NCBI GenBank assembly: GCA_023132875.1
Contig: JAGLXN010000007.1
Coordinates: forward strand, 1,262-65,261
Length of the DNA stretch: 64,000 nt
Source of the DNA: Candidatus Parcubacteria bacterium
Lineage (GTDB): Bacteria > Patescibacteriota > Minisyncoccia > JAHIHE01 > JAGLIN01
Reading direction: 5' to 3'
The position numbers and the translations under genes are program-made. Below the pieces are notes generated by a model. The model saw nothing but the letters and a program-made list of their open reading frames with translations, was not told where the DNA came from and searched no databases. Positions 11,250-62,893 of the stretch are shown one piece after another; positions within the stretch are counted from its first letter, which is position 1; each line of letters starts with the position of its first letter.

Positions 11250-11345
11250 ATTTTTAGATTATTATAAAATTTCATTTCATGCTTATATTATACAATGATT
11301 AAGTGATTTGAGTCAAAAAAAATTTTATTCCTTTCTTAATACGCG

Positions 11346-11372
11346 TAGAGACGCAGCAATGCTGCGTCTCTA
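11346..11372. repeat. palindromic repeat AGAGACGCAGCAATGCTGCGTCTCT
   Basis: A variant of the same family with the same gcagcaatgctgc loop. Confidence 0.9.
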
Positions 11373-11459
11373 CTAATATATAACAAAATTTTGTCTGCAA
11401 AAATCGTAAAGATTATTACAAATAGAAAAGGACAGATAGTAATTATATCATTTGACATA

Positions 11460-14172: not shown

Positions 14173-14291
14173 AGTTTTGATTAGTGAATTTTTGAATGCT
14201 ATTACATTGTTGCATTGTTAAATTGCTAAATTGTTATGCGTGGCATAGCAATACAGCAATTTAACAATTTAACAATTTAACAATTTAAATT

Positions 14292-20252: not shown

Positions 20253-21204
20253 CCAATCCCTCAAAATTTCCACCAATAAACTTAAATTACAAAACATTCC
20301 TTCCGCCGACCTTGATGCGGAAGTTTTGTTATTGGAAGCGTTAAATAGAAGTAGATATAAAAAATTAGACAAAAGCTGGTTGTATATAAATGATAATTAC
20401 GAATTAAACAAAAACGAAGAAAAATTATTTAATAGTTTTATAAATCAAAGATTAAAAAACAAGCCAGTTGCTTATATAATAAATAGAAAAGAATTTTATG
20501 GCTACGATTTTTATGTTGACGAAAATGTTCTGATCCCCCGCCCTGAAACAGAATTCATTGTTGAAGAAGTTTTGAAAATTTTAAACCCCCTTAGCCCCCC
20601 CATTCGGCTATCGCTCGGAGCAGGCTCTTATCAGAGGGAAAATAGCGATTTCACTCTAATTGACATTGGAACTGGTTCGGGTTGCATAATAATAAGCGTT
20701 TTAAATGAGCTTGCAAAAAGAAAAGGAGATGATGTTGTAGAAAACGCTTACGCAAATGATATTTCTTTAAAAGCAATCAAAATCGCAAAACGCAACGCAA
20801 ATAAATATAACTTGAACAAAAAAATAAAATTTGTCGCAAATGATTTTGAAAAATTTTTAAATAAAAAAAATATTTATAACTCCGACGAACTTGTCATTAC
20901 AGCTAATCTTCCATATATAAAAAATGATGATTACAAAAATCTTTCTAAAAATATAAAAAAGTACGAACCCAAGATTGCGCTTGCAGCGGGAAAAGACGGA
21001 CTCGTCTATATAGAAAAATTAGTTGATTCTGTATTAAAAATCAAGAAAAAATACAAGCAAAAAATATATGTTCTTATTGAAGCAGATCCAAATCAAATGA
21101 GTAAAATAACTGCTATAATAAACAAAAAATCAGCTAACGCGCGTATTAAAATAATTAAAGATTTGAGCGGAAAAAAAAGAATTGCCGTATTGTCATATTG
21201 CTAA
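20242..21204 (+). CDS. prmC: release factor glutamine N5-methyltransferase PrmC/HemK
   Basis: LIPRPETE, the SAM motif IDIGTGSGC, and the NPPY-equivalent NLPY. Start placed at the MNIHQSL ATG (20242); the ORF-track N-terminal extension reads through the leader repeats. Carries a GC-rich ~23-aa insertion at ~20585-20655. Confidence 0.8.
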   Translation: MNIHQSLKISTNKLKLQNIPSADLDAEVLLLEALNRSRYKKLDKSWLYINDNYELNKNEEKLFNSFINQRLKNKPVAYIINRKEFYGYDFYVDENVLIPRPETEFIVEEVLKILNPLSPPIRLSLGAGSYQRENSDFTLIDIGTGSGCIIISVLNELAKRKGDDVVENAYANDISLKAIKIAKRNANKYNLNKKIKFVANDFEKFLNKKNIYNSDELVITANLPYIKNDDYKNLSKNIKKYEPKIALAAGKDGLVYIEKLVDSVLKIKKKYKQKIYVLIEADPNQMSKITAIINKKSANARIKIIKDLSGKKRIAVLSYC

Positions 21205-21267
21205 ATTGTTATATTATTATTGCGTTATGCATAACAATTTGACAATAGAGCAATTCAACAATTTAAA

Positions 21268-22990: not shown

Positions 22991-23017
22991 TAGAAACGCA
23001 GCAGTGCTGCGTTTCTA
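22991..23017. repeat. palindromic repeat GAAACGCAGCA(A/G)TGCTGCGTTTC
   Basis: Near-identical copies at 2459..2484 and 11346..11372. Confidence 0.9.
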
Positions 23018-25448: not shown

Positions 25449-25474
25449 TTTATAAATTATAAAATTTAAACTTC

Positions 25475-25560
25475 GTTTATTTAGTGTAAACATTAGTTTT
25501 TTTGGTGTTTTCTGTAGAAGACACTAATAAAACTAATATTTACACTAAGAAAACTAAAAC
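25475..25560. repeat. nested inverted-repeat element (tagtgta..attagtt / aactaatatt..cacta family)
   Basis: ttagtgtaaacattagttttt..gacactaataaaactaatatttacactaa. Related copies at 22..155, 37471..37560 and 63811..63950. Confidence 0.8.
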
Positions 25561-32895: not shown

Positions 32896-33969
32896 CTATA
32901 ATTCCAACACTTTTACCAACTGCTTAATCATTGAAACTACAACAGGCGGCGCCATCAAACTATGAGATAAAATTCCATCTTCGTTAGAGATCGTCCATGG
33001 TTTTTCAATAATTTTTACTTTTTCATTTTTTTCATCCCATTCATAGCTATATTCAGGCGTAAGTTCATAATTATCAACGCAATCCTCCGTATCCTTTACG
33101 GGAACCGTATTCCTTAATAAAACCTTTGGCATTCCGTGAAGCGAATACGCTTTTTCCATTAATTCTCCATCTAATTTCAATCTTTTTTTAATTGGTTCTA
33201 TGCCAAACTCATCGCCTTCTTTTCTAACCATTCTCACCTTCTGGCACTCAGGATTATCGCAAAGAAAGAAAAATTCTTTTTTTTCTTTGTCATATTTAAT
33301 ATTATCTTCTTTAACCGGCAATAGTTTTAAATTTCTCGGGGTATTGCATTTTGGGCAAATCAGCCGCCATTTAATTCTTTCATCAAGCACATTCTCTGGA
33401 ACATTGATTAGAATAAAAATATCCGCGTCATATCTATACCCGGCAAGATCCCTAAAAAACAAAGAATAAGAGATTTGATCAAGCCCCCTTGGAAAACCGT
33501 CTATAAAAAGAGTTTTCTTTTTAAGTTGGTCTATTTTTCTTTTAACAAGCGTCAGAACAAATTCTGTCGGCAAAAGAATTTTTGTATTTCTATCAGCAAA
33601 TGATCCTAAAACTTCGTCTATAGAAACAAATCCCCTGTAGTTTTTTCTCAAATATTTTTCTATTTCTTCTCTTTTATTTTTATCTTGCATTTCCTCTTCA
33701 ACTTCTCTGACCATATCCCCGATTGAAATATGCTTTATATATTCCTTTCCTATAACCTCGCTAAACATTTTTGAATAAGTCCCCTTCCCGGCATTTTTCT
33801 TTCCTAAAAGATAAGCGATAAAACTTCCATCTTTTTTGAAAAATGTTCTTAGCTTCTCAATTTCTTTTCCGGCTTTAGCCTCAAAATATTTTTCTCTCTC
33901 CGCTGGATCCGATAAATCAAACTTTTGATTAACTCCCTCCATTTTTGTCTTACAAATTGGAACTTCCAT
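32896..33969 (-). CDS. adenylate kinase family protein with C-terminal extension
   Basis: GKKNAGKGT P-loop, GDMVRE, LFIDGFPR, and the lid Zn motif RLICPKCN...CDNPEC. About 110 extra C-terminal residues. Confidence 0.55.
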   Translation of the reverse strand: MEVPICKTKMEGVNQKFDLSDPAEREKYFEAKAGKEIEKLRTFFKKDGSFIAYLLGKKNAGKGTYSKMFSEVIGKEYIKHISIGDMVREVEEEMQDKNKREEIEKYLRKNYRGFVSIDEVLGSFADRNTKILLPTEFVLTLVKRKIDQLKKKTLFIDGFPRGLDQISYSLFFRDLAGYRYDADIFILINVPENVLDERIKWRLICPKCNTPRNLKLLPVKEDNIKYDKEKKEFFFLCDNPECQKVRMVRKEGDEFGIEPIKKRLKLDGELMEKAYSLHGMPKVLLRNTVPVKDTEDCVDNYELTPEYSYEWDEKNEKVKIIEKPWTISNEDGILSHSLMAPPVVVSMIKQLVKVLEL

Positions 33970-34104
33970 ACTTTTTAAAATTATTTAATTATAGTATCTT
34001 TATATCATAATTTTCCAATTTTTGCAATTGAACGCGATATAATGAACGCGATATAAAATAATTACTAGATAAAAATCAAAAGCTCCTATTCAGCAATTCA
34101 AAAA

Positions 34105-34145
34105 CTATAACCTCTTTCTGACGACCGTCAGAAAGAGGTTATAGG
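34105..34145 (-). terminator. intrinsic terminator of the MBL-domain gene
   Basis: ctataacctctttctgacg/cgtcagaaagaggttatag is a ~19-bp stem followed by a T-run on the minus strand. Confidence 0.7.
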
Positions 34146-34172
34146 CGCTATTTTTGAAAAAACTAGAAATTT

Positions 34173-35078
34173 TTATTCAAAAATCACATCTCCCATCCTA
34201 TCTGTTCTGAAAATTTCAATGCTCATATTTCTCAAACGATTTAAAAGTTCTTTCGCGGGATGTCCATAATTGTTTTTACCAGAAGAAATAATTGCTTTTT
34301 CTGGCTTTACAGCTTTTAAAAATTCGTTTGAAGTCGCGTATTTGCTTCCATGATGCGATGCTTTTAAAATTTTTGATTCTACATTAATATTTTTATCAAG
34401 CAGTTCTTTTTCAACTGGAAAACCAGCGTCTCCAGTTAATAAATAAGAATTATTAAATTTGTCATCCTGTCCGCTAGCCGGCAGATTCAGGATCTTTTGA
34501 TTTTTATCGCCATTCTCTCCTACATTAGATAAATTTTTATTAATAACCAGTTTTAATACTATGGACGCGTCATTGCTATTTTTAACTTCTTTGCTTTCTA
34601 AGCTCTCAAAAGGATATAAAACAGCCATTTCTACATTTCCTGCTTTTATCCTCTGCCCGAACTGAGCGTATTTTACGGAAATATTTTTTTCTTTAATTAA
34701 TTTATCCCATTCTTTACAAATCGCTTTTTCACATTCTATGCCTGTTTCTAAAACCCGTCCTACTTCATAGTATTTTAAAACCTCAACCAACCCGCCCATA
34801 TGGTCTTTGTCTGGATGAGTCATAATTACAAGTTCAATTTTGCGGTCATAAAACGGCATATATTCTCCAAGTTTCTCTAAAATATTCTTTCCATCTCCTC
34901 CATCTATTAAAATCTGCATATCATTTCCAACATCTATTAACGCCGCATCTCCTTGTCCAACATCAAGAAAAATCACTCTTGGTGTTTGAATTGGTTTTTG
35001 CTGATAAAAAGCAACAACTGCGAGAATATTGAAGAGAAATAAAAATATTAGGATTATATAGAGATATTTTTTGGACAT
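34173..35078 (-). CDS. ComEC-type metallo-beta-lactamase domain protein (stand-alone, TM-anchored)
   Basis: VIFLDVGQGDAALID...HPDKDHMGG is the ComEC C-terminal MBL motif. It has its own N-terminal TM helix. Confidence 0.75.
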   Translation of the reverse strand: MSKKYLYIILIFLFLFNILAVVAFYQQKPIQTPRVIFLDVGQGDAALIDVGNDMQILIDGGDGKNILEKLGEYMPFYDRKIELVIMTHPDKDHMGGLVEVLKYYEVGRVLETGIECEKAICKEWDKLIKEKNISVKYAQFGQRIKAGNVEMAVLYPFESLESKEVKNSNDASIVLKLVINKNLSNVGENGDKNQKILNLPASGQDDKFNNSYLLTGDAGFPVEKELLDKNINVESKILKASHHGSKYATSNEFLKAVKPEKAIISSGKNNYGHPAKELLNRLRNMSIEIFRTDRMGDVIFE

Positions 35079-35112
35079 ATGATATTTCTATGTTATTTTA
35101 ATTAATAATTTT

Positions 35113-35682
35113 TTACAATTCAATTCCATCAACCAGCTCCTCATAATTTAAACTTGTATATTTCCAATTCTCTGGCAATTTATGTTTTTGAAAATTATAT
35201 ATTGTATAATGGTAATGGTTTTTAAAATCTTTCGCGTCTCTTATTATGTGGTCATAAAATGATTTTTGCCATTTGAATTTTGGGATTAAAGTTTGATTTT
35301 GTACGTGTTTTTGGATAAATTTGGTTTGATAATTTTTAATTAGATCCCGCATCCGAAGGCGACACGTCGACGTGTCGCCTTCGTTATGATTATTCATAAT
35401 AATATAATTTATATCCCTTGATATATTCTCTTTTAATGACCTCATTATTTTTGAAATATTAAATTCATTATTTGGATGAATCATTAAATTTAAATGATCA
35501 TAAATTATGCAAAACCCATATAATTTAAATTTCTTTACTTCTTTACATAATTTTAATTCTTCAACCAACAATTCGCAAAATATTAACTCTTTAAAATACG
35601 GAAAATTTTGAAATGTTTTTGTGACGATGAAATAAACATTATTATCTATAAAATCACGCTTTTGTGAATTGCGATGCTGCAT
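35113..35682 (-). mobile_element. REP-associated tyrosine transposase (RAYT / IS200-like Y1) family protein, HUH motif degenerate
   Basis: C-terminal KWQKSFYDHIIRD..NHYHYTIYN matches the RAYT WQ(R/K)x(Y/F)(Y/W)DHxIR...YIxxNP motif. The HUH position reads DHLNL. A REP-like palindrome lies inside the ORF. Confidence 0.55.
35352..35381. repeat. REP-like perfect palindrome cgaaggcgacacgtcgacgtgtcgccttcg
   Basis: 30-bp perfect palindrome, GC-rich, in frame within the RAYT gene. A related copy is at 62825..62851. Confidence 0.85.
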
Positions 35683-35686
35683 AATT

Positions 35687-37192
35687 TTATCTGAAATTAT
35701 TAATCTTTTTGTTAAAACTTATATATGCTTTTATCTGTGAATAATTAAATCCCAAAACCAAAACTGCATAATAAACAGCAATAAACAAAAAATTAAATTT
35801 CTCAAAACTAAAATATCCGAAATCAAGACTGGCAAACAATTTTATAATCTCAATTTGATAAGACAAAATCAGCCAGATTGGCCATGATAATATTTGCGCG
35901 ACGAACAAATTTACAAAACCAATAATAATAAGTAAAAGCCCTCCAAGCATAACGACCGGCACGAAAGGCAGAATTAGAACATTAGCAAAAACTGAAAACA
36001 AAGAAAAGCTTCCGAAACTGTTAATAATGATCGGCAGTGTTGCAATCTGCGCCGAAATGGTTATCAGAAACATTGTCTTGATCTTCAAACAATCGGGATA
36101 TTTTTTCAAATAAAAATCAAGTCTTGGATATATATAAATTATACCAAGCACTGCTAAAAATGAAAGCTGGAATCCGGTATCATATCGCAATAGATTCGGA
36201 TCATACAAAAGCATTAAAACTCCGGCAAAAACAACCGCGTTGCAGGCGCTATTAAGCCGTCCAACTTTTACCGCAAATAATATAAGCCCTCCCATTACAA
36301 ACGCACGTACTGCCGAAGATGGAAAACCGACGAGAGCGACAAAAAAAGCAATTCCTAAAATCGCAAAATAAAACGCGTAATTTCTTCTTAATCCAACAGC
36401 AAGCAATAGATACATAAATACGATCGATACGATCGTCATGTGAAGCCCTGAAATGGCTATAATGTGCCTTGTGCCGGTTTTATTGAAACTTTCCAGCGTC
36501 TTAGAGCTTATACTCGATTTTATCCCCAGTGTCATCGCGCTTACAATTCCTGCTTGCGGTTCTGGAAATATTTTTTTGATAATATTATTCGCGTATATTC
36601 TAAATTGTGAAATTTGAAAATTAATTCCCGCGTCATTTTTCTCCACTATTTCTATTTCTGGATAATACGCGATATAATAAATCCCTTTTGAGAAAAGATA
36701 ATCTCGGTAAGCAAAACCGTCAAAATCTTCTGGAATTTTTATCTTTCCCTTAAATCTAATTTTATCAGTAAAATTATATTCAGGATAGTGATCCGCGTAT
36801 ACAATAATTTTTCCATTAATATTACTGTTATTCTCAATATTCTTTATATTTTTAATCACTATTTTTTGCTTTTCATTTTTAATTTCTGGCGCTTGTAAAA
36901 TTTCTCCGCTTATTAGCGCTTCTTGATTATCTAAACTTTTTATTTCAGAAATCTTATTTTTGCTTAATTTTCCGCTTTCAATTCTTATAAAACCCAGTAA
37001 AATAAAAATGGCTAGCAATAATATTATTCTTGCATTTTTGTTATCCCGCAATAAAAAAACAAGCGAGATAAAAAATCCAGCTTCTAAAAATAAAATCCAA
37101 ATTTGAATTGAAAAATAAGAGCCTAAAAAAATCCCAGAAATAAACGCGGCACAAAACAACAAAAAATATTTTGACCTAGTCATTGATCTCAA
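35687..37192 (-). CDS. comEC: ComEC/Rec2 competence protein, membrane channel part
   Basis: DUF4131-like N-terminus plus the competence domain (HIIAISGLHMTIV...). It lacks the MBL domain, which is encoded separately downstream after the RAYT gene. Confidence 0.75.
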   Translation of the reverse strand: MRSMTRSKYFLLFCAAFISGIFLGSYFSIQIWILFLEAGFFISLVFLLRDNKNARIILLLAIFILLGFIRIESGKLSKNKISEIKSLDNQEALISGEILQAPEIKNEKQKIVIKNIKNIENNSNINGKIIVYADHYPEYNFTDKIRFKGKIKIPEDFDGFAYRDYLFSKGIYYIAYYPEIEIVEKNDAGINFQISQFRIYANNIIKKIFPEPQAGIVSAMTLGIKSSISSKTLESFNKTGTRHIIAISGLHMTIVSIVFMYLLLAVGLRRNYAFYFAILGIAFFVALVGFPSSAVRAFVMGGLILFAVKVGRLNSACNAVVFAGVLMLLYDPNLLRYDTGFQLSFLAVLGIIYIYPRLDFYLKKYPDCLKIKTMFLITISAQIATLPIIINSFGSFSLFSVFANVLILPFVPVVMLGGLLLIIIGFVNLFVAQILSWPIWLILSYQIEIIKLFASLDFGYFSFEKFNFLFIAVYYAVLVLGFNYSQIKAYISFNKKINNFR

Positions 37193-37445
37193 TTATTTTT
37201 TCCTTATTTTTCTCACCTTTAATAATACTAATTTTATTTTTACTAATATCTAATTCTTTAGATAATAATTTTATAAGCTCCGTGTTCGCTTTTCCATCAA
37301 CAGGAACAGCAGTAAGATAAATTTTAAAAAATGGCAATTCGTTGCCATTTTTATTTTTAAACCCAAGACCCGATTGATTTAAATTATCAATTCCTAAAAC
37401 TTCATTTTTTGAAGCTCTTGTTATAACTTTACATTTGAATTTCAT
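37176..37445 (-). CDS. yggU: YggU/DUF167 family protein
   Basis: VPVDGKANTELIKLLSKELDISKNKISIIKGEKNKEK matches UPF0235. Confidence 0.7.
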   Translation of the reverse strand: MKFKCKVITRASKNEVLGIDNLNQSGLGFKNKNGNELPFFKIYLTAVPVDGKANTELIKLLSKELDISKNKISIIKGEKNKEKIIEIND

Positions 37446-37470
37446 CTTTTTAAAATTGTAACTTTTAAAA

Positions 37471-37560
37471 TTAGTTTACTTAGTGTAATTATTAGTTGTT
37501 CTAGTGTTTTATCTATAAAACACTAAAGAAACTAACGCTCACACTAAAAAAACTAAAACG
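37471..37560. repeat. nested inverted-repeat element, subfamily B
   Basis: ttagtttacttagtgtaattattagtt...cactaaagaaactaacgctcacactaaaaaaactaaaacg. Its tail matches the 25475..25560 copy. Confidence 0.75.
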
Positions 37561-37576
37561 CAATCTACAACAAATC

Positions 37577-38299
37577 TCAATCCAACACCACTACATTTTT
37601 ACAATATTTCTTTAACTTCTTAGACATTTTTTCTAGTTCTTCTTTTTCGTAAGGTTTTACATTTTCAAAACTATTGTGTAAAGTTTTTTCTGATCTGAAA
37701 TTCTGGATTGAATAACGAAATAATTTTGGAAAAATATTTTTACTAATTCTATTTATCCAATTTATCATCTCATCAAAATCTTCCTGATTGACATATCCAG
37801 GCACAACCGTTGTTCGAAGTTCTAATTTACTTTCACTGTCTGTAATCAAGCTTATACTTTTTTCTATATTTTCTATAATATCATCTTTTTTCGTCATAGT
37901 CTTATATTTTTCCGGAGTTGTTTTTATGTCTATTGCCCAATAATCAACCAAATTATCCTTTACCAAATCAGAAACAACGCTAAAATGAGATCCATTAGTA
38001 TCAACTTTCACCAAAAATCTCATCTCTTTTATTTTTTTTATAAATTCTTTCAAACCAAGCTGTAAAGTCGGCTCTCCACCCGTAATACAAACTCCATCCA
38101 AGTCCCCTTTTCTTAATTCTAAAAATTCTAATATTTCTTTCTCCTTTATTTTATTTTCATAATCAATTAATTTTACATCCACCAATTCAGGATTATGACA
38201 AAACGGACAACGAAAATTACATCCCATAGTAAAAACAACCGCGGCAATTCTCCCCGGATAATCTAACATTGTAAATTTTTGAAATCCACCGATAAACAT
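37577..38299 (-). CDS. nrdG: anaerobic ribonucleoside-triphosphate reductase activating protein
   Basis: Radical-SAM CNFRCPFCHN, GGEP, and size typical of NrdG. Confidence 0.85.
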   Translation of the reverse strand: MFIGGFQKFTMLDYPGRIAAVVFTMGCNFRCPFCHNPELVDVKLIDYENKIKEKEILEFLELRKGDLDGVCITGGEPTLQLGLKEFIKKIKEMRFLVKVDTNGSHFSVVSDLVKDNLVDYWAIDIKTTPEKYKTMTKKDDIIENIEKSISLITDSESKLELRTTVVPGYVNQEDFDEMINWINRISKNIFPKLFRYSIQNFRSEKTLHNSFENVKPYEKEELEKMSKKLKKYCKNVVVLD

Positions 38300-38318: not shown

Positions 38319-38420
38319 TATTTATTCGTGATTCGTGTTTATTCGTTTCACACTTGTATAAATTCGTTTTGGAACAAATTTATACGAATTGATTACGAAT
38401 TTTCACGAATCACGAATTAA
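38319..38420. repeat. imperfect ~100-bp inverted repeat built from ATTCGTG units
   Basis: tattcgtgattcgtgtttattcgtttcacacttgtataaattcgt ... acgaatttatacgaattgattacgaattttcacgaatcacgaat. It fills the whole nrdD-nrdG spacer. Confidence 0.8.
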
Positions 38421-44155: not shown

Positions 44156-44281
44156 ACATATTAAATTGTTAAACTGCCAAATTGTTAAACTGCCATGCCA
44201 TATATAACAATACAGTAATTTAACAATGTAGCAATGTGATTTTTATTAAAAACGCCAATCCATAAATTTCCAAATAAAAAT

Positions 44282-49597: not shown

Positions 49598-49894
49598 AAA
49601 TTTAATATTTTAAAAAATAGACATCACTAATTATTTATTATAAAATAAAATCAGAATTTATATATTTTAATTTATTTATACTGTTATAGAAGTATCCTAG
49701 ATTTTAATTTCATTAATAATAAAAATAAAAATCAATATATTGTCAAACTGTTAAATTGTTAAATTGTCACGCATTTTACTTGTCTTTGACAATTTGGCAA
49801 TTTAACAATAAAAAAACATTTATAAAACAATAAAAATTTAAATTAGGTACTTCGGTTTTATGCAAACCTTAATCAACAATCCATAAATATAATA

Positions 49895-62765: not shown

Positions 62766-62824
62766 TTATTTCTATGTTTTATCAAGCTGTAATAAAAACT
62801 ATCCAATTTTTAAATTTAGTTTAC

Positions 62825-62851
62825 AGGCAACACATCGACGTGTCGCCTTCG
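62825..62851. repeat. REP-like palindrome copy
   Basis: aggcaacacatcgacgtgtcgccttcg is related to the palindrome inside the RAYT gene. Confidence 0.75.
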
Positions 62852-62893
62852 ATTAGCATAAATATTCAAATTCTTTAGCGATAAATTAATTAT

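Follow-up and report, generated by a model that had tools for sequence, protein, structure and literature searches.

A probable REP/RAYT module between the two genes of a Parcubacteria comEC locus, with a REP-like palindrome inside the RAYT reading frame

Genes of the locus and state of the RAYT protein

The 64-kb window, that is, the whole stretch of DNA analysed here, contains three tightly spaced minus-strand genes, and the open reading frame calls agree with the initial annotation that these are a ComEC channel gene, a 189-aa RAYT-like gene and a stand-alone metallo-beta-lactamase (MBL) gene. The ComEC-N (N-terminal, or channel) gene (positions 35687–37192, minus strand) encodes a protein of 501 aa (498 aa in the NCBI version; the homolog search retrieved the 100% identical protein P0121) with the Pfam DUF4131 OB-fold and Competence domains and without an MBL domain. 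It is followed by an intact gene for a RAYT-type Y1 HUH protein (35113–35682, minus strand; 189 aa) and by the gene for a ComEC-type MBL protein (34173–35078, minus strand; 301 aa, Lactamase_B), the hydrophobic N-terminus of which bears out the membrane anchor ascribed to it. The gap between ComEC-N and RAYT is 4 bp, as first described, and that between RAYT and MBL measures 34 bp rather than 35 bp. When compared with the ComEC_Rec2 model TIGR00361, the 501-aa protein matches positions 80–378 and the 301-aa protein positions 424–663, the latter covering the C-terminal third of the model. The DUF167/YggU gene upstream (37176–37445, minus strand) is a member of the syntenic block nrdD-nrdG-DUF167-comEC-N-(RAYT)-MBL-ADK-like-SMC, by which orthologous loci were identified. 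A scan of positions 33900–37600 against Rfam yielded only sub-threshold matches to miRNA-like hairpins.

Assignment of the 189-aa protein to the RAYT-type Y1 HUH enzymes is supported by a Pfam match (Y1_Tnp, PF01797; 28 bits, cut-off 23), a near-threshold NCBIfam match and the predicted fold. The NCBIfam model NF047646 (REP_Tyr_transpos) gives 74.3 bits, below the equivalog cut-off of 80, with profile positions 3–139 of 146 covered; the protein falls narrowly short partly because of an insertion of ~28 residues. The same model is matched by all 42 aligned homologs (best E-value, 5e-34), whereas 15 of the 42 match the IS200 model, and do so weakly. The AF2 model of the protein has a pLDDT of 87.6, and its top Foldseek match in the PDB is 4er8_A, the structure of E. 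coli TnpA-REP in complex with its REP hairpin (E = 4.9e-7; TM 0.52/0.59).

The HUH position reads H63-L64-N65 (codons at 35488–35496, minus strand), as originally noted, so that the second histidine of a two-His motif is an asparagine in this protein. This H-x-N state characterizes 17 loci, which make up the whole subclade, and 68 of 120 database homologs, with H-x-H found in more distant members. Further along, the codons of Y159-T-I-Y-N163 occupy positions 35194–35208 (minus strand; Y159 codon, 35206–35208). Y159 aligns with Y115 of E. coli TnpA-REP, the tyrosine at position 115 of chain 4ER8_A, which we take to be the catalytic residue, and N163 aligns with N119. Of the 69 loci covering the position, 68 have the tyrosine, and the asparagine four residues on is found in most loci; both are invariant in the 42-sequence alignment A1. 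Comparison with the syntenic ortholog yields a dN/dS of 0.12, indicative of purifying selection. The description of this RAYT as degenerate therefore does not hold, given that H-x-N is the state of the subclade, that both the tyrosine and the asparagine are kept and that the gene is under purifying selection. Judged from these sequence comparisons, the gene is not decaying.

A palindrome kept inside the gene and repeated outside it

The RAYT reading frame contains, as reported, a perfect GC-rich 30-bp palindrome (CGAAGGCGACACGTC followed by GACGTGTCGCCTTCG; positions 35354–35383), an intragenic REP-like element that is in frame and encodes (N)EGDTSTCRLR. The encoded residues (~100–110) form a low-confidence loop in the AF2 model. 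The computed folding energy of the palindrome is −17.5 kcal/mol in the form of DNA (z = −7.5) and −25.4 kcal/mol in that of RNA (z = −6.9). Given the codon usage of the window, the joint probability of its particular set of synonymous codons is 2.7e-8. We considered EGDTSTCRL as a conserved protein motif and rejected this reading because six genes use a second frame, the codons are atypical and identical copies occur outside genes.

GC-rich perfect palindromes with arms of at least 8 nt are found in at least 48 of 64 distinct homolog genes versus 0.2% of shuffled genes, at the same relative, loop-coding position, and the genes bearing them come from Patescibacteria, Cloacimonadota and Spirochaetia. 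The consensus for the clade is G(A/T)AGGCG-N(8-14)-CGCC(T/A)TC, and the genes translate it in either of two codon phases (43 genes in one and 6 in the other, the six reading KA..AF). The two arms covary, with double-sided changes in 16 of 18 pairs and 215 compensatory cells compared with about 72 in shuffles, none of 500 shuffles reaching 215. Pairing is strictly Watson-Crick: across the 47 sequences of alignment A3, the inner 10 pairs are free of G-U, and complementarity extends to the central pairs. The outer arms GAAGGCG/CGCCTTC are conserved, and third codon positions elsewhere in the gene are 58% identical; the nucleotide-identity profile was used only for this third-position divergence outside the palindrome, being partly circular for the 22-nt core because the homologs were chosen for sharing that core. 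These alignments show that the palindrome is conserved at the level of DNA and not of protein. Positions 5–8 carry the REP tetranucleotide, G-(A 33/T 8/C 6)-A-G in the 47 sequences of A3, and it is paired inside the stem; the palindromes are not imperfect hairpins but perfect and mostly loopless, and palindromy runs on into flanks that are specific to each copy.

The near copy noted 27 kb away is real but decayed. It lies in a spacer between two minus-strand genes (TACAGGCAACACATCGACGTGTCGCCTTCG; positions 62823–62852) and is identical to the internal palindrome at 25 of 30 positions, with one arm intact and all five changes confined to the other. Its 22-nt core (62826–62847) has 2 mismatches, a level of similarity with no match in 100 shuffles, and its pairing is kept through G-U on the transcribed strand only. 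The 64-kb window contains the internal copy and this single extragenic one, and no palindrome copy flanks its RAYT gene. Among relatives, the own 28-nt core of the locus is repeated with 0–3 mismatches at 13 of 49 loci, at 11 of them just upstream or downstream of the gene (flanking copies in L001, L005, L006, L008, L010, L026, L030, L035, L046, L050 and L082), and the 12-kb locus L027 has 4 further palindromes of the family. The exact 28-mer was found at 26 metagenome loci (15 outside any RAYT, 8 of these 15 from one sample), and its non-RAYT occurrences are mostly intergenic, some of them clustered with other variants. Thus, the REP/RAYT relationship originally suggested is borne out in relatives, in which copies of the palindrome occur both beside the gene and scattered through intergenic sequence.

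What the internal copy does can be read in several ways. It may be a functional part of the system, with enzyme gene and substrate fused, serving either as a master copy that allows flanking and dispersed REPs to be regenerated or as a DNA-level switch by which the enzyme limits its own dosage through a nick or a replication pause in its gene; the clade-specific loop-plus-helix would then represent an exapted ancient REP insertion. We regard this reading as possible, if tentative.

Alternatively, a REP could have landed once in a tolerant ancestral loop and been maintained passively in frame by self-perfection and gene conversion, without any role. Intragenic REPs have been documented in other genes, where they were considered neutral for the most part (PMC3733652); the loop encoded here is disordered, a strong palindrome is absent from about a quarter of homologs, and the extension of palindromy into copy-specific flanks suggests a mutational process. 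Yet one site has been kept in at least 75% of genes, in several phyla and down to ~35% protein identity, with the outer arms conserved against the third-position divergence of the rest of the gene; the palindrome survives a change of reading frame and, as in the window, outlasts the flanking copies. A purely passive element is, in our view, unlikely.

The element could also work at the RNA level, as a hairpin of the RAYT transcript that sets expression of the gene by slowing translation, offering a nuclease site or stabilizing the message, possibly with the RAYT protein binding its own mRNA. Its high predicted stability as RNA, its position mid-ORF in a tolerant loop and the transcribed-strand G-U pairing of the extragenic copy in the window are all consistent with such a role, and REPs of 3′ UTRs are known to function as RNA elements (PMC3733652). 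However, the inner stem has no G-U pair in the 47 sequences, the two central pairs are complementary although they are unable to pair in a hairpin, and identical copies occur outside the gene and at unrelated intergenic sites. These three features argue for a constraint, or a mode of generation, acting on DNA, with which an added RNA effect would be compatible; as the primary explanation, we consider the RNA hairpin quite unlikely.

Two comEC genes before the arrival of the RAYT

The initial annotation proposed that a REP-RAYT unit had inserted into an ancestral fused comEC, and named relatives with the same split and no transposase as evidence that would speak against it. Comparison of fused and split organization uncovered precisely such relatives: ComEC-N and MBL genes are adjacent without a RAYT in L086, L089, L091, L118, L119, L120 and L121, whose ComEC-N identities are 79, 73, 68, 56, 46, 42 and 36%. 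Spacers between the two genes in these relatives are as short as 2 and 14 bp, and the MBL gene always has its own start and membrane anchor. The MBL domain is absent from the best 120 ComEC-N homologs (100% to 36% identity), which are about 450–550 aa long and contain DUF4131 and Competence only, and the best 120 MBL homologs (100% to 48% identity) are all stand-alone proteins of about 190–320 aa. Instead of a three-domain ComEC/Rec2 on one polypeptide, there are two genes here and in all relatives examined. These gene arrangements show that the comEC split predates the arrival of the RAYT; the split pairs without a RAYT, the clear RAYT remnant in one of them and the separate homologs imply that the RAYT entered a spacer that was already there, some lineages losing it afterwards.

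That a REP-RAYT unit divided a fused comEC into separate channel and MBL genes, as the placement of the RAYT exactly between the two parts and the recurrence of ComEC-N directly followed by RAYT in a distant Patescibacteria lineage (L020/L062) might suggest, is thus very improbable, considering the absence of a fused form among the 120 nearest homologs of either protein, the seven split pairs without a RAYT, the independent start and anchor of MBL in all seven and the fact that DUF4131 plus Competence (“DC”) is a common ComEC profile (PMC6299819).

DC is the second commonest ComEC profile, and the MBL domain has been gained and lost repeatedly (PMC6299819). The channel protein of the window resembles DC-profile ComEC proteins in having no Lactamase_B domain, but differs in that this Parcubacteria group keeps MBL as a separate, anchored gene beside ComEC-N. 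On this gene content, the arrangement is a two-gene ComEC rather than a case of MBL loss, and annotation of such Parcubacteria loci as disrupted or pseudogenized comEC is unwarranted.

The history of the RAYT within the spacer can be traced in close relatives. Locus L081 has the identical order ComEC-N/RAYT/MBL, the spacer of L089 retains 48 nt of the RAYT 5′ end as a clear remnant, and that of L086 holds a weaker trace of the same end. Synteny with L081 and the remnant in L089, with the weaker one in L086, point to vertical descent of the RAYT. The L086 lineage probably also diverged after the RAYT had entered, and the fainter trace hints that the gene was deleted there too. The other initial proposal, a lineage-specific arrangement, applies only loosely: the RAYT was in the spacer before the window, L081 and L089 lineages diverged and was then deleted in L089. 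The window has one RAYT copy, and some related genomes have 2–4. In L062, the RAYT gene is missing its 5′ half as far as the palindrome. In L087 and L088, three small opposite-strand ORFs without a family match lie between ComEC-N and MBL. For the spacer of L119, a weak tblastn match pointed to a RAYT remnant in reversed orientation, but neither profile comparison nor NCBIfam bore this out, and a scan of viral contigs found no RAYT homologs.

A probable REP/RAYT module and its relation to known systems

Collectively, we interpret the locus as a REP/RAYT module that has a REP built into the RAYT reading frame and resides, as a passenger, between the two genes of an anciently bipartite comEC, which encode ComEC-N and a membrane-anchored MBL nuclease, a reading to which we assign a probability of roughly 0.65. 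The RAYT belongs to a clade centred on Patescibacteria, with G(A/T)AGGCG-N(8-14)-CGCC(T/A)TC as the proposed cognate REP and one copy of it in the gene. This internal REP is predicted to encode a disordered loop between two helices, within a ~40-residue segment absent from the E. coli RAYT. By analogy with E. coli TnpA-REP, the enzyme would bind the palindrome hairpin in single-stranded DNA, and may nick and rejoin beside it, thereby copying or homogenizing REP copies. Because the site is perfectly palindromic, both strands would offer the same substrate. The internal copy may act as a “master copy”, with enzyme and substrate inherited together, and such co-inheritance would account for its retention at loci that, like that of the window, no longer have flanking copies. 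That the palindrome is perfect, through its centre and out into the copy-specific extensions, is presumably due to template switching during replication (quasi-palindrome correction), which we infer to be a simpler account of perfect symmetry than selection on each base. As for the host locus, any detectable effect of the module on comEC in the window would be limited to a longer operon.

Several points count against this interpretation. The window lacks flanking copies and has a single, decayed extragenic one in its 64 kb, which gives no sign of active REP propagation in this genome. The second HUH histidine is an asparagine, the NF047646 score lies below the equivalog cut-off, and the palindromes are perfect, with the tetranucleotide paired in the stem, unlike canonical REPs. 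A substrate inside the gene would be expected to endanger it, and the presence of 2–4 gene copies in some genomes is reminiscent of insertion sequences, unlike classical RAYTs, which occur as a single copy per genome.

The closest known counterpart is E. coli TnpA-REP (RayT/YafM; “REPtron”; PDB 4ER8). The proteins share the Y1 HUH fold and a C-terminal WQ..F.DH...Y...N..KH block that can be aligned, including Tyr115 and Asn119. As with E. coli REPs and BIMEs, the genes of many relatives are flanked by GC-rich palindromes starting with G(T/A)AG, and copies are dispersed through intergenic DNA. Nevertheless, there are clear differences. E. coli rayT, which served as a control, has flanking REPs and none inside the ORF. 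In canonical REPs the hairpin is imperfect and the GTAG unpaired, whereas the palindrome of this clade is perfect and mostly loopless, with G(A/T)AG in the stem. Furthermore, the window RAYT has a ~40-residue insertion (loop plus long helix), its subclade has H-x-N in place of H-x-H, and the gene is multicopy in some related genomes.

The IS200/IS605 transposases (TnpA of IS608 and ISDra2) have the same Y1 HUH fold and account for ranks 2–30 of the PDB matches. These enzymes act on subterminal hairpins in single-stranded DNA. By contrast, the window clade lacks tnpB as well as left and right ends that differ from each other, its upstream, internal and downstream hairpins are one and the same palindrome, and its homologs match the RAYT model throughout (42 of 42) and the IS200 model only weakly and in part (15). 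Quasi-palindrome correction by template switching is established in E. coli and yeast mutagenesis, and would generate a palindrome that obeys Watson-Crick symmetry up to its very centre and grows outward into copy-specific flanks. It is, however, a mutational bias and not a genetic element, and it leaves the conservation of the outer GAAGGCG arm unexplained.

Intragenic REPs and the Rickettsia palindromic elements (RPEs) resemble the internal palindrome in being short, in-frame palindromic repeats that encode tolerated surface peptides (PMC3733652). Those elements occur sporadically in unrelated host genes, whereas here the host is the REP-associated enzyme itself, and the insertion, which goes back to the ancestor of the entire clade, co-evolves with extragenic copies. 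A search of open-access literature text found no report of an intragenic REP in a RAYT gene, and on that basis a REP/RAYT system with a REP embedded in the ORF of its own enzyme appears to be a new feature. On the practical side, such perfect palindromes break metagenome assemblies within the RAYT gene.

How REPs originate, are copied and become matched to their RAYTs is still unsettled. Classical systems combine hundreds of REPs with one distant enzyme gene, so that cause is difficult to tell from effect. If every enzyme gene of a clade has exactly one site of its own, in frame and covarying with neighbouring copies, in tiny genomes with few repeats, that clade would be a compact natural test bed for RAYT-REP specificity, for their co-evolution and for the possible action of a RAYT on its own gene.

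Arrival of the RAYT gene in a split comEC locus

In an AT-rich part of the window (GC ~30%), three closely packed minus-strand genes encode ComEC-N, the channel part of ComEC (35687-37192; 501 aa, DUF4131 and Competence domains), a RAYT-like protein (REP-associated tyrosine transposase; 35113-35682; 189 aa) and a separate metallo-beta-lactamase protein (MBL; 34173-35078; 301 aa, matching Lactamase_B and the C-terminal third of the ComEC_Rec2 model). ORFs, domain matches and palindrome positions confirm the initial annotation in these genes, in an in-frame palindrome in the middle one and in a distant near-copy of it. ComEC-N ends 4 bp upstream of RAYT, as described there, and the gap to the downstream MBL gene is 34 bp, not 35 bp.

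As one of two readings, the same annotation proposed that a fused comEC had been cut by insertion of a REP-RAYT unit, which the relatives contradict. The closest 120 ComEC-N homologs (100% to 36% identity) all measure ~450-550 aa and carry DUF4131 and Competence without an MBL domain, and the closest 120 homologs of the MBL protein (100% to 48% identity) all stand alone, the full-length ones being ~260-320 aa long. The syntenic order in relatives is ftsZ-nrdD-nrdG-DUF167-comEC-N-MBL-…, and in 7 retrieved loci ComEC-N and MBL are separate neighbours without RAYT (ComEC-N identity: L086, 79%; L089, 73%; L091, 68%; L118, 56%; L119, 46%; L120, 42%; L121, 36%), with a spacer of 14 bp in L091 and 2 bp in L120. 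Locus L081 has the gene order of the window, with a RAYT 76% identical; the RAYT-free spacer of L089 retains the RAYT gene's initial 48 nt, coding MQYHNSQRRNYQDNNA, and that of L086 holds a weaker trace. Collectively, the RAYT-free split relatives, the L081 order and the remnants indicate that RAYT arrived in an already existing ComEC-N/MBL spacer, in an ancestor shared by the window, L081 and L089, and that L089 subsequently lost the gene by deletion. The L086 lineage probably also descends from a RAYT-bearing ancestor, its deletion being less firmly indicated.

This spacer takes in foreign DNA repeatedly: in L087 and L088 it is filled by three unrelated small ORFs. These (117, 123 and 262 aa; L087 6521-8415, L088 alike; relative 78% identical) lie on the opposite strand, and no family matches were found for the three in L087. 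ComEC proteins lacking Lactamase_B are common (PMC6299819), and the present case differs from them in that the MBL part is retained as an adjacent anchored gene; the comEC arrangement here is ordinary.

Other RAYT homologs occupy unrelated gene contexts, with the exception of L020 (3063-5188) and L062 (739-2615), loci of a distant, GC-richer Patescibacteria lineage in which a RAYT homolog directly follows ComEC-N. The L020 gene is intact (H-F-H) and overlaps the ComEC-N stop; the L062 gene is decayed and lacks its 5' half as far as the internal palindrome (2323-2342). Neither locus has an MBL gene after RAYT, and ComEC-N and RAYT could adjoin there through inheritance, through a shared target or by chance.

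Downstream, two 19-nt arms (CTATAACCTCTTTCTGACG/CGTCAGAAAGAGGTTATAG; 34105-34144) form a perfect hairpin that is probably a terminator; Rfam returned only sub-threshold miRNA-like matches for it. It separates the MBL gene from one for an adenylate-kinase-like protein (32896-33969; 357 aa), whose N-terminus carries a long extension and which contains a Cys-rich insert; it is kept beside the MBL gene in L081, L086, L087, L002 and L121.

An intact RAYT-fold protein under selection

The 189-aa protein passes Pfam Y1_Tnp and narrowly misses NCBIfam REP_Tyr_transpos (74.3 bits; cut-off 80); the RAYT model is matched by 42 of 42 homologs. Its AlphaFold model (42 homologs as input; pLDDT 87.6, pTM 0.85) best matches E. 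coli TnpA-REP with bound REP hairpin (4er8, E = 4.9e-7), with IS608 and ISDra2 TnpA ranking next. The HUH position reads HLN, and the Tyr aligned with Tyr115 of E. coli TnpA-REP is kept, plus an Asn four residues on. The initial annotation considered the gene degenerate; this view is not supported, given that the entire subclade closest to the window has H-x-N (17 loci, and 68 of 120 homologs in the database), that the Tyr is retained in 68 of the 69 loci covering that position, and that comparison with the syntenic L081 ortholog yields a dN/dS of 0.12 (dN 0.137, dS 1.10). More distant members have H-x-H. Furthermore, five H-x-N genes (L001, L006, L008, L010 and L082) are flanked by palindrome copies identical or nearly identical to the internal one, which argues, at the level of sequence, that H-x-N enzymes still accompany live REPs. 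The RAYT would accordingly appear functional rather than degenerate.

A palindrome conserved as DNA inside the RAYT gene

The perfect 30-bp palindrome CGAAGGCGACACGTC/GACGTGTCGCCTTCG (35354-35383) lies in frame within the RAYT ORF. Of 64 distinct homologous genes, retrieved independently of it, 48 have a perfect, GC-rich palindrome whose arms are 8 nt or longer (12 nt or longer in 38 of the 64), compared with only 0.2% of shuffled genes. Its site is constant (~nt 290-330 of the gene), and so are the outer arms, G(A/T)AGGCG…CGCC(T/A)TC, with a centre that is variable yet self-complementary (ACGTCGACGT, ATTCCGGAAT, ATTCGCGAAT, ATTGGCCAAT, GGTCACGTGACC and GGATAATTATCC among those seen). Arms reach up to 26 nt, extending into copy-specific flanks. 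In an ungapped 47-sequence alignment, picked for having the palindrome (a selection covered by the shuffle test on the 64 genes), double-sided changes occur at 16 of 18 pairs, with 215 compensatory cells against ~72 in shuffles (reached in 0 of 500) and a covariation score of 0.64 against ~0.1 in slid controls. The cognate palindrome family is conserved as DNA and evolves in concert, and one of its members is fixed inside the RAYT gene.

A regulatory hairpin acting at the RNA level keeps some weight: it is consistent with the stable RNA hairpin but with neither the paired centre, the two central pairs being complementary too, nor the absence of G-U pairs, of which the inner ten pairs have zero across the 47 sequences. 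Pairing that stays strictly Watson-Crick even at the centre suggests that the palindrome is constrained or generated at the DNA rather than the RNA level. Some weight also remains with a neutral, self-perpetuating in-frame REP, which agrees with the disordered loop encoded by the palindrome but not with its retention across phyla and survival of a frame change. A peptide motif EGDT..CRL conserved at the protein level was rejected, because the pattern is one of covarying DNA arms, two codon phases occur (EGD…CRL in 43 genes, KA…AF in 6 genes of one subclade), the window's synonymous choices (GGC, GAC, ACG, TCG, CGC, CGG…) are atypical (joint probability 2.7e-8 under local codon usage), and the encoded residues make up the loop linking helices 76-96 and 106-132, the sole internal loop modelled with low confidence, within a ~40-residue segment absent from E. 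coli TnpA-REP.

A small GC-rich hairpin, with a stem of 8 bp and a loop of 5 nt, is also found in this linker region of three more distant homologs whose motif is the ordinary H-V-H or H-I-H (L060 1969-1989, L064 6264-6284, L063 6346-6366), and in L060 and L064 it lies at the homologous loop; the internal hairpin may therefore extend beyond the perfect-palindrome clade. Six contigs (L047, L053, L055, L057, L067 and L068) start or stop exactly at the intragenic palindrome. Such perfect palindromes or repeats seem to break short-read assemblies, leading to truncated RAYT gene calls in databases.

REP-like copies beyond the gene

A copy of the 22-nt core with 2 mismatches lies in an intergenic spacer at 62826-62847, where none is expected by chance. 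In 13 of 49 loci, additional copies of the gene's own 28-nt core occur beyond its ORF with 0-3 mismatches, and 11 of these loci have them immediately upstream and/or downstream of the gene; non-self cores are matched far less often. Around the L006 gene (90-695), for example, copies lie at 18, 402 and 738; identical copies number three in L050 and form pairs in L005, L026 and L001. The window's exact 28-mer was found at 26 JGI metagenome loci, 11 within RAYT homologs and 15 elsewhere, the latter mostly intergenic on low-GC contigs (8 of the 15 from one sample). Some copies adjoin a second palindrome variant or a GTAGAGACG…CGTCTCTAC palindrome; flanks of dispersed copies are unrelated, and palindromy often runs on with copy-specific sequence (L115, L109, L096). 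The gene-flanking and dispersed intergenic copies in relatives and metagenomes support the proposed REP/RAYT relationship.

A second GC-rich, GTAG-tagged family (GTAGAGACGCAGCA/TGCTGCGTCTCTAC and variants) occurs at 11345-11373 and 22991-23017, and in L003 (2653-2681), L005 (4808-4835), L099 and L114, directly adjoining a GAAGGCG-type palindrome in the last; the 64-kb window shows no RAYT gene besides the one at 35113-35682. AT-rich intergenic palindromes of ~60-100 bp with short repeated words (TTAGTnn/TTAGTGTAA; ATTGTTA/AATTGCT; ATTCGTG) form at least two families of 3-4 copies each per 64 kb (44-129, 25472-25557, 37471-37556; 14202-14284, 21180-21263, 44175-44233, 49749-49809; 38321-38420), and two copies flank nrdG, near the comEC/RAYT locus.

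If it works like E. coli TnpA-REP and IS608 TnpA, whose biochemistry is established, the protein would recognise the hairpin that its site extrudes when single-stranded, and would cut and rejoin the DNA beside it; the perfect palindromy of this site would make a substrate of either strand. The internal copy would hold enzyme and site together and outlast lost flanking copies, as in the window, where the neighbouring ComEC-N and MBL genes lie only 4 and 34 bp from RAYT. Replication that switches template across the hairpin, a known mutational bias, would best account for the perfect symmetry and the outward growth.

No report of a REP inside the RAYT ORF as a clade-wide feature was found in open-access text. 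RAYTs with flanking REPs, and sporadic intragenic REPs in other genes, are already known (PMC2817692; PMC3733652), and rayT of E. coli K-12, our control, has REPs on both sides and zero inside the gene.
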